Part shown: in pieces, positions 37,573 to 37,864 of the stretch
Layout of the letters: the number at the start of each line of letters is the position of its first letter
Numbering within the stretch: position 1 is the stretch's first letter
Sequence record: PQ330092
Direction: 5' to 3' (one strand)
DNA from: Escherichia phage JP4
Length of the DNA stretch: 64,000 nt
Notes under the pieces: model-generated
Told to the model about the DNA's origin: nothing
What the model saw: only the letters and a program-made list of their open reading frames with translations
Database searches by the model: none
Position numbers and translations under genes: made by a program

Positions 37573-37650
37573 ATCAAGACGAGAACGTCACTAACCCATA
37601 GGGTGCACAAATGTAACTGTATAATATTGATCAAAAAATGATCTGATCAA
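37573..37650 (+). ncRNA. candidate orphan box transcript
   Basis: ACATCAAGACGAGAACGTCACTAACCCATAGGGTGCACAAATGTAACTGT; no + strand ORF until 37865. Confidence 0.3.
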
Positions 37651-37681
37651 TACTTGATCAATTTGCGTAAAGTAGTATAAT
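37629..37681 (+). promoter_or_regulatory. GATC-cluster promoter
   Basis: GATC at 37629, 37640, 37645 and 37656; TTGATC (37654-59), 16-bp spacer, TATAAT (37676-81). Confidence 0.5.
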
Positions 37682-37864
37682 TCTATGCAGTTGGTTAGAC
37701 GAAAGGTTATGATTAGTAGTGCAAGTGTATAAAAATTTTCATGGTGTATCGTTCCGCACATATGGCAATGAATATGTGGTATCATGTGGATTGGAAAAAG
37801 TAAGAACAAGTAATATTATTGTCGCATTACAGTACTATAGTATTTTTATAATGAGGTTAAAATA

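Follow-up and report, generated by a model that had tools for sequence, protein, structure and literature searches.

A paired TGATCAA array as a candidate operator between tandem promoters in the terminal repeat of an Asteriusvirus jumbo phage

The 64,000-nucleotide stretch of Escherichia phage JP4 DNA analysed here (sequence record PQ330092; this whole stretch is called the window) contains, in front of a gene for a TraR/DksA-like protein, a dense array of GATC sites built on the motif TGATCAA. We propose that this array is a protein-bound, probably methylation-sensitive operator that controls two tandem early promoters, and we give this reading, which is drawn from sequence analysis, a probability slightly above one half (about 0.55). 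From the anatomy and conservation of the sequence, the coding status of a small gene behind the array and the predicted fold of its product, we infer protein binding, repression and sensitivity to methylation. The original prediction for this region, made from the letters of the DNA, had seen the GATC sites as a possible Dam- and SeqA-dependent gate on the TraR-like gene. Operators that contain Dam sites are a known kind of system; new would be the presence of one in an unstudied regulatory region of a jumbo phage. To our knowledge, almost nothing is known about the timing of early genes in RaK2/121Q-like jumbo phages.

Results

Anatomy of the TGATCAA array

The argument rests on the following elements, given in the order of the sequence:

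37538..37566, plus strand: promoter P1; TTGACA, 17-nt spacer, CATAAT, with an extended -10 TG (TTGACA-17-TGgCATAAT)
37567..37619, plus strand: conserved segment transcribed from P1, containing CTAACCCATAGGGTGCACAAATGTA (37591-37615)
37627..37662, no strand assigned: TGATCAA array, the proposed operator, with four GATC at 37629, 37640, 37645 and 37656
37654..37681, plus strand: promoter P2; TTGATC (37654-59), 16-nt spacer, TATAAT (37676-81), 10/12 in the promoter scan

The four GATC sites fall within 31 bp and form two pairs, 37629/37640 and 37645/37656, each with a spacing of 11 bp. Three of them read TGATCA (37628, 37644 and 37655), exactly as originally predicted, and the site at 37640 reads TGATCT. 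The cluster indeed overlaps a sigma70-type promoter, and it is statistically unusual: four GATC in a span of ≤27 bp were obtained in 4 of 1000 second-order Markov simulations of the 46.9-kb non-duplicated part of the window. This test is conservative, since the simulated sequences are richer in GATC (146) than the real one (104). In ~97 kb of this phage type the runner-up, a cluster of four within coding sequence, extends over 87 bp, and nowhere else in the ~97 kb examined does a specific repeated motif centred on a Dam site overlie such a promoter.

The conserved unit, as read from the sequences, is TGATCAA and not the bare GATC. TGATCAA is present at seven of the eight evolutionarily distinct array sites, compared with 1 of 100 other GATC sites in the window, and for the AA flank alone the difference between array sites and other GATC sites has a p value of ~1e-7. 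The palindromic consensus of the array sites is TTGATCAA. Conservation that extends beyond GATC points to a sequence-specific binding protein rather than to Dam or SeqA alone. Pairs of array GATC lie on the same face of the helix within approximately three turns, and their spacing is exactly 11 bp in all three sequence types described below.

The second-densest GATC cluster, the one of four sites in 87 bp, is located in an open reading frame (ORF) of ~200 aa in the terminal repeat (42568-43151, plus strand), whose product has a kinase-like motif (…IKVLDYGL…).

Conservation and turnover of the sites

The module of P1, conserved element, GATC sites, P2 and small ORF is found in three diverged sequence types. 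The PBECO4 type, represented by this window, has four sites with spacings of 11, 5 and 11 bp, the last site being located in the -35 of P2. The 121Q type has five sites with spacings of 11, 16, 29 and 11 bp; the third is in a weak -35 (TGGATC) and the last pair is just downstream of the conserved TATAAT. In the Hallingskeid-like type (eight distinct variants) four sites are spaced by 11, ~31 and 11 bp, with the -10 enclosed by the second pair. All three types share a homologous first pair. For the pair that overlaps P2 the position is non-homologous, yet the spacing is always 11 bp.

The DNA between the sites is only ~60% conserved or freely variable while the sites themselves stay; in the Hallingskeid-like set the 13 nt that follow the -35 have almost no invariant column. 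Losses of sites were seen in just two single-lineage cases, Turkey5 and L034/L035. Judged from these comparisons, the array is under selection, the sites being kept with positional turnover while the intervening DNA diverges. This pattern indicates selection for the recognition, by a protein, of paired TGATCAA motifs on one helix face, over P2 and downstream of P1.

The tandem promoters and the element between them

The original prediction knew a single promoter, the one at the GATC sites, and overlooked a stronger consensus promoter 116 bp upstream of it. This promoter, P1, sits straight after the preceding gene, scores 11/12 with TG in the promoter scan, contains no GATC and is nearly invariant in nine Asteriusvirus sequences. 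It belongs to the class of near-consensus promoters that precede most genes of the terminal repeat; a TTGACA-16/17-TATAAT promoter is found 30-55 nt before nearly every small gene of the repeat. With P1 upstream, the TraR-like gene could be transcribed from a start other than that of the GATC promoter.

The ~50-nt segment transcribed from P1 is invariant, including CTAACCCATAGGGTGCACAAATGTA, in both Asteriusvirus alleles and is also found in Hallingskeid-like contigs. It has no match in Rfam and no significant fold (z of approximately -1.9 for the longer P1 transcript), and an IMG/VR scan for this leader element returned only 121Q, a jumbo-phage contig without the array (L020) and unrelated coding matches.

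P2 corresponds to the TTGATC-16-TATAAT promoter that had been predicted, and its -35 hexamer contains the fourth GATC site. The -10 and its flanks (GTATAATTCT) are conserved in both Asteriusvirus alleles; the Hallingskeid-like homologue reads TTGAC(T/A)-17-AATAAT in all variants although the spacer varies, and there the GATC pair lies around the -10. From the -10 of P2 to the start of the small ORF there are 37 nt in the window (range 31-37 nt), as for other promoter-gene pairs of the repeat. P2 is the second of two tandem promoters and directly serves the small ORF.

Two paralogous copies of a P1-type promoter plus element are located on the minus strand (31632-31564 and 30095-30017). These paralogues (CTAACCCAnnGGGTGCAC; 31645-31470 and 30105-29930) lie in gaps between plus-strand genes, and the copy at 31632 is followed after ~100 nt by a terminator-like hairpin (CGGGGAG-N7-CTCCCCG with a T-rich tail). 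They could be small antisense or non-coding RNAs; there was no Rfam match.

Two further features of the promoters may be mentioned. With 496 copies in 46.9 kb, GTAC exceeds expectation ~1.5-fold, and there are 237 copies of AGTACT, for example at 37553-37558 and 38135-38140. In 13 of 33 TTGACA promoters AGTACT begins exactly 15 nt after the start of the -35, just before the -10, and in six further TTGACA promoters it begins at +5. The hexamer has the look of a spacer element conserved among early promoters and is possibly the site of a phage or host factor. Moreover, terminator-like stem-loops at 35875-35912 and 39895-39932 carry a TTGACT -35 in their 5' arm and a TATTAT directly after the stem (AAAGGGATTGACTCCGGTCAGTCCCTTTGCTATTATAT). 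Such units are also found at L010 ~696-730 and in L041 and L043, and are conserved in Hallingskeid-like, GAP32 and Eneladusvirus phages; they look like fused terminator-promoters.

A small gene in place of a leader

Downstream of P2, the following features are encountered:

37702..37706, plus strand: Shine-Dalgarno-like AAAGG of the small ORF, at a rather long distance (12 nt) from the start codon
37719..37865, plus strand: small gene, 48 aa, start codon GTG here and TTG in the 121Q type; gp293 of 121Q, phrog_38664
37757..37778, plus strand: predicted hairpin CACATAT-N8-ATATGTG, within the small gene and not a conserved structure
37853..37856, plus strand: Shine-Dalgarno GAGG of the TraR-like gene, read from the sequence, within the 3' end of the small gene
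37865..38122, plus strand: TraR/DksA-like C4 zinc-finger gene, 85 aa; Pfam PF01258, phrog_54

The ~180 nt in front of the TraR-like gene had been taken for a non-coding leader with a hairpin. This region is a conserved coding gene of 48 aa. The ORF is open over 147 nt in 10/10 Asteriusvirus sequences (two alleles, ~60% identical here) and starts with GTG or TTG at the same alignment column. The differences between the sequences are distributed 12:7:19 over the three codon positions, and stop codons abound in the two other frames. The product matches phrog_38664 (E 4e-35), and the 121Q record annotates the ORF as gp293 at the place of window 37719-37865. With homologues in the Erwinia phage Hallingskeid and related metagenomic contigs, in the Pectobacterium phage CBB, in the Cronobacter phage GAP32 and in Eneladusvirus, the gene is present in five phage groups. 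This corrects the annotation: a conserved small gene, un- or misannotated in many records, stands where a leader was assumed.

The AAAGG is invariant in all Asteriusvirus sequences amid diverging surroundings. The stop codon of the small gene overlaps the ATG of the TraR-like gene (TAATG) in every Asteriusvirus sequence, and because of this overlap the two genes are probably translationally coupled. Over its final ~60 nt the small gene hardly varies in nucleotide sequence. As to its homologues, those of CBB (L011 862-1049) and GAP32 (L043 451-594) lack annotation in the RefSeq records, and the stop of the CBB homologue overlaps the start of the next, different gene (ATGA), so that coupling to a downstream gene recurs.

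The predicted hairpin can be drawn at 37757-37778, but it lies inside the gene, folds with -7.3 kcal/mol (z -0.67), which was equalled by 41 of 200 shuffled sequences, and is absent from the 121Q-type allele, where GTGGTAATGCTGGGGAATATGTAG stands in its place and forms no hairpin. A leader or riboswitch was therefore rejected: the region is coding, it has no Rfam match, and the hairpin is neither significant nor conserved.

The basic 48-aa protein was modelled with AlphaFold from an alignment of 12 sequences, and the model is confident (pLDDT 91.2). It has a four-stranded antiparallel beta-sheet packed on a C-terminal helix, superposable on AP2 domains. On the basis of the model, the fold is closest to AP2 DNA-binding domains and the protein probably binds DNA. 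It matched no Pfam family at E ≤0.1, AP2 included, and a profile search against PDB sequences gave spurious matches only. The resemblance to AP2, as modelled, is in fold only and the protein is not filed as a member of the family. In the viral structure library only uncharacterised small proteins of related jumbo phages matched; homologues of the RaK2 group were found at the structure level only, and tblastn did not locate them.

The predicted start of the TraR/DksA gene at ATG 37865 was confirmed. The 85-aa product matches PF01258 (zf-dskA_traR) with E 3.2e-9 and 37.1 bits (cut-off 24.9) and phrog_54, 'DksA-like zinc-finger protein', with E 2e-18, and related records annotate it likewise. Its nearest relatives outside Asteriusvirus are proteins of T4-like phages with 55-70% identity. 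The TraR-like gene had been regarded as the direct target of the GATC promoter, but the direct target is the small ORF. Hallingskeid-like phages have the same array and promoter before the small ORF, with no TraR-like gene after it.

Position in the terminal repeat

The window comes from an Asteriusvirus, that is, a 121Q/PBECO4-like jumbo coliphage. The 1-kb region around the array matches 41 phage records, the best being Escherichia phages UB, BF17, PBECO4 and 121Q, and the genomes of the best-matching Asteriusvirus phages have ~350 kb. The array is located 10.8 kb inside a 20.1-kb direct terminal repeat. Where a record begins at the physical end, 10-13 kb separate the region from the left end, and it falls within the annotated direct terminal repeat, which in vB_Ec-M-J is annotated at 1-21525. 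The terminal repeat of fEgEco12 was determined as 20,993 bp by PhageTerm and restriction mapping (PMC13070987). These repeats of ~20 kb are packed with tiny genes behind consensus host-type promoters. A search for tRNA and tmRNA genes in the long intergenic gap found none.

Two copies of the 20,114-bp repeat follow each other directly in the window (26792-46905 and 46906-64000) and are identical over the comparable 17.1 kb, from 26792 onward, at an offset of 20114. It appears that the right end is joined to the left in the source record, as in a concatemer-like or circularised form of a linear genome with terminal repeats. Because of the two tandem copies, the region from the array to the TraR-like gene is found a second time, at 57743-57978:

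57741..57776, no strand assigned: second, identical copy of the array, with GATC at 57743, 57754, 57759 and 57770 (offset +20114)

GATC is ~2.4-fold depleted outside the terminal repeat (1-26778), with 24 observed versus 59 expected (obs/exp 0.41), and 72 versus 175 expected were found in positions 1-50000 of SHEFM2K (L040). Inside the repeat (26779-46892) it is not depleted (80 observed versus 93 expected, obs/exp 0.86).

Another tetranucleotide, GCGC, is wholly absent: ~64 would be expected from second-order Markov models (11 + 41 + 12) in ~97 kb (window 1-46892 plus L040) and none was found. In the same ~97 kb CGCG, GGCC and CCGG are near their expected levels. The absence of GCGC suggests that the phage strongly avoids some activity directed at GCGC, be it restriction or another.

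Methylation of GATC

SHEFM2K encodes a 173-aa Dam-family methylase (PF05869, E 2e-31), and orthologues are present in all Asteriusvirus as well as in RaK2, K64-1 and Hallingskeid. Nanopore sequencing revealed 6mA at GATC throughout the genome in virion DNA of Hallingskeid, and the authors could not assign this methylation to the host or to a phage enzyme; DNA of the Kaldavass type is also GATC-methylated (PMC11780129). Hallingskeid carries the same array as Asteriusvirus, and, taken together, the methylase and the methylated virion DNA make a link of the array to Dam plausible. The Eneladusvirus genomes examined for the array (pEa_SNUABM_47 and Serratia BF; not Kaldavass) do not carry it. A correlation between Dam genes and arrays was considered and is unusable, since CBB has no array yet was reported to encode adenine methylases (PMC5259590).

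The spacing of the sites also bears on SeqA. The protein requires at least two hemimethylated GATC that are up to approximately three turns apart, and by analogy the 11-bp pairs are of the kind that SeqA can use, with the same geometry as on hemimethylated DNA.

Discussion

Together, these features suggest an operator with the following mode of action. One TGATCAA pair is placed between the strong early promoter P1 and the weaker P2 and the other over P2, which would feed a two-gene unit of the 48-aa basic AP2-like protein and the TraR/DksA-like gene, coupled via TAATG. A protein that reads TGATCAA pairs on one helix face would occupy the array; its occupancy would repress P2 and could also block transcripts that read through from P1. 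Occupancy would probably be sensitive to the methylation state of the DNA (full, hemi or none), because each site has a Dam-target core, the phage encodes a Dam-family methylase and the virion DNA of a relative is GATC-methylated. Candidate readers would be the adjacent small protein, in an autoregulatory circuit, the host SeqA or another factor, and within this operator reading we give the small protein and SeqA roughly equal, modest weight. Autoregulation classically shows this layout, in which the gene for a small DNA-binding protein comes right after an operator array that lies on the gene's own promoter; Dam plus SeqA leave the conserved flanks, and the shifts of the sites relative to -35 and -10, unexplained. 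The 36-bp operator with its two candidate readers, the 48-aa phage protein and host SeqA, and with a phage-encoded Dam is an entry point into this control, the output of which includes a TraR-like factor that is likely to reprogram the host RNA polymerase.

One may speculate further that the 48-aa AP2-fold protein itself reads the TGATCAA pairs and binds them in dependence on the N6-adenine methylation set by the Dam-family enzyme of the phage. As a whole we regard this as quite unlikely. If true, occupancy would differ between the fully methylated DNA that is injected, the hemimethylated DNA of replication and the DNA re-methylated late, giving a minimal methyl-reader switch that times the shut-off or re-activation of an early unit with an RNA-polymerase-targeting TraR-like factor. 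This would be the first stand-alone AP2-like phage transcription factor described and the first phage-encoded reader of Dam sites.

Several points weigh against an operator of this kind. The small gene is found without any GATC array in CBB-like, GAP32 and Eneladusvirus phages; with three groups lacking it, the small gene does not generally need the array, and autoregulation via TGATCAA sites cannot extend to the whole family. The arrays of Asteriusvirus and Hallingskeid-like phages share the upstream element and probably have a single origin, so that there are effectively just two or three independent lineages. P2 of the 121Q type may be weak, its -35 (TGGATC) being poor. Finally, the GATC specificity of the phage PF05869 enzyme is predicted, and host Dam could explain the methylation of Hallingskeid DNA.

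The original prediction, gating by Dam and SeqA without a sequence-specific factor, is unlikely in our view but deserves consideration. Methylation would act directly on the contacts of sigma70 at P2, or SeqA would be recruited to the hemimethylated pairs after replication, and expression of the small gene and the TraR-like gene would be tied to newly injected versus newly replicated DNA. This would be in line with the GATC core that is kept at every site across lineages, with the 11-bp spacing that puts paired sites on one helical face, with the phage methylase and the methylated virion DNA of Hallingskeid and with the depletion of GATC elsewhere in the genome (obs/exp 0.41). However, Dam and SeqA need GATC alone, yet in conservation the flanking T and AA are roughly equal to the core. 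Depending on the type, the sites are found in the -35, at the start region (~+1 to +20) or around the -10, and such shifting positions fit occlusion by a bound protein better than a direct effect of methyl groups on sigma contacts. In addition, the strong GATC-free P1 upstream feeds the same genes.

That the array has no dedicated function, being a slippage or duplication by-product of a short AT-rich palindrome in an ordinary promoter region and kept by descent, is improbable. The probable single origin behind the same upstream element, the groups that carry the small gene without the array and the repeated emergence of tandem TTGATCAA-N3 repeats in unrelated phage contigs would all be accounted for. 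Mere descent does not fit sites that remain invariant while the sequence between them drops to ~60% identity or varies freely, nor the new 11-bp pairs with the same flanks that arose at non-homologous positions in different lineages, nor the scarcity of site losses.

We see a slimmer chance still for an element of DNA metabolism, either an unwinding or iteron region of the origin type, for which the P1 transcript would serve as primer, as in the R-loop origins oriF and oriG of T4 and the GATC repeats of oriC and P1 oriR, or a packaging signal like pac of phage P1. A strong promoter followed by an AT-rich stretch of repeated GATC units would suit such a role. Clustered GATC or TGATCA repeats are found in P1 pac and in the origins oriC and P1 oriR, a likeness that also speaks for it, and unrelated arrays with an 11-bp period in IMG/VR adjoin a dnaN-like gene (L053) or a terminase gene (L132). 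The origin was rejected for want of a GC-skew signal at the array: GC skew turns not at 37.6 kb but at ~26.8 kb, the boundary of the repeat, where the orientation of the genes changes as well. A P1 pac-type packaging site was rejected as well, since the array has the hexamers but is at a great distance from the genome ends; it lies deep inside the repeat and not near a terminase gene, and the ends were mapped elsewhere by PhageTerm and restriction data for fEgEco12 (PMC13070987). Moreover, the sites are interleaved with a conserved -35 and -10, and a gene follows at the normal distance.

Hardly credible is an element that acts at the RNA level, with hairpins of the palindromic sites in the P1 transcript causing attenuation or processing and the downstream hairpin as a leader structure: the predicted fold of the 45-nt array consists of two small hairpins (-9.4 kcal/mol, z -2.9), but this is a trivial outcome of palindromic GATC sites, the stems have 5-7 AU-rich pairs and no U-tract, the intergenic region has no Rfam match at E ≤1, the longer P1 transcript reaches a z of only ~-1.9, and the downstream hairpin is unconserved and in coding sequence.

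Binding sites of known host proteins were also considered, by inspection. Each 11-bp pair resembles the core of an IHF site (WATCAANNNNTTR) with two mismatches, but GATC is created precisely by the invariant G in the W position and by the G that stands in place of the second T, which argues for selection on GATC and not on the IHF consensus. For FNR/CRP, Fur and DnaA boxes, spacing or half-sites do not fit.

As a proposed operator, the array has its closest parallels in Mu mom, agn43 of E. coli and opvAB of Salmonella, which involve OxyR, and in pap, which involves Lrp. In these systems, too, several GATC are packed at or just upstream of a promoter, and a sequence-specific protein competes with Dam so that the methylation state sets expression; Mu mom is also from a phage. 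The array described here differs in that TGATCAA occurs in strict 11-bp pairs that match no OxyR or Lrp site, and in its location between tandem promoters in the early region of a virulent jumbo phage.

In the wider class of Dam-sensitive promoters and operators GATC lies within the promoter or operator, as does the fourth site in the -35 of P2. In IS10 pIN, P1 cre and dnaA P2 a GATC is located in the -35 or -10, likewise resembling the one GATC in the -35 of P2 in the window, and sequestration of dnaA and oriC by SeqA uses, on hemimethylated DNA, the geometry of site pairs one helical turn apart. In contrast to these systems, the flanking bases are conserved here but not the placement of the sites with respect to the hexamers, and neither is expected of a direct methyl effect or of SeqA alone.

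With Cro, Arc/Mnt, CopG and omega, which has 7-bp heptad arrays, the region shares an array of short sites over the promoter of a very small gene predicted to encode a DNA-binding protein. The predicted fold is AP2-like here and not helix-turn-helix or ribbon-helix-helix, and unlike the case of these small autorepressors, the autoregulation is hypothetical and three phage groups have homologues of the small gene without the array. AP2 domains are known from AP2/ERF proteins, from HNH-AP2 homing endonucleases of phages and from CasPR repressors, and phage proteins with an AP2 domain (AP2-containing CasPR) were recently described to act as sequence-specific repressors (bioRxiv 10.64898/2026.02.23.707548). 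Compared with these, the small protein has no Pfam AP2 sequence match and would be a stand-alone domain of 48 aa without partner domains; known AP2 targets are mostly G/C-rich. The 85-aa protein, for its part, shares the PF01258 C4 zinc finger and the TraR-like size with TraR of the F plasmid and TraR-like phage proteins; by this analogy, binding to the secondary channel of RNA polymerase and an effect on transcription are putative.

Arrays of this kind are not restricted to jumbo phages. A scan of IMG/VR for TTGATCAA-N3-TGATCAA gave at least 120 matches, some of which are genuine tandem arrays in unrelated phages that repeat every 11 bp; their neighbours include dnaN-like, TnpB, terminase and helicase genes. 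Given these heterogeneous neighbours there is no common partner protein, and the scan does not decide the function of the array in the window. Tandem TTGATCAA-like arrays with a period of 10-11 bp are located on the unrelated contigs L053 (~6709-6830), L045 (~4015-4080) and L096 (~11304). They reach 11 GATC in ~120 bp, one adjoins a gene for the beta subunit of DNA polymerase III (dnaN-like), and they may be origins or iteron arrays that use Dam sites.

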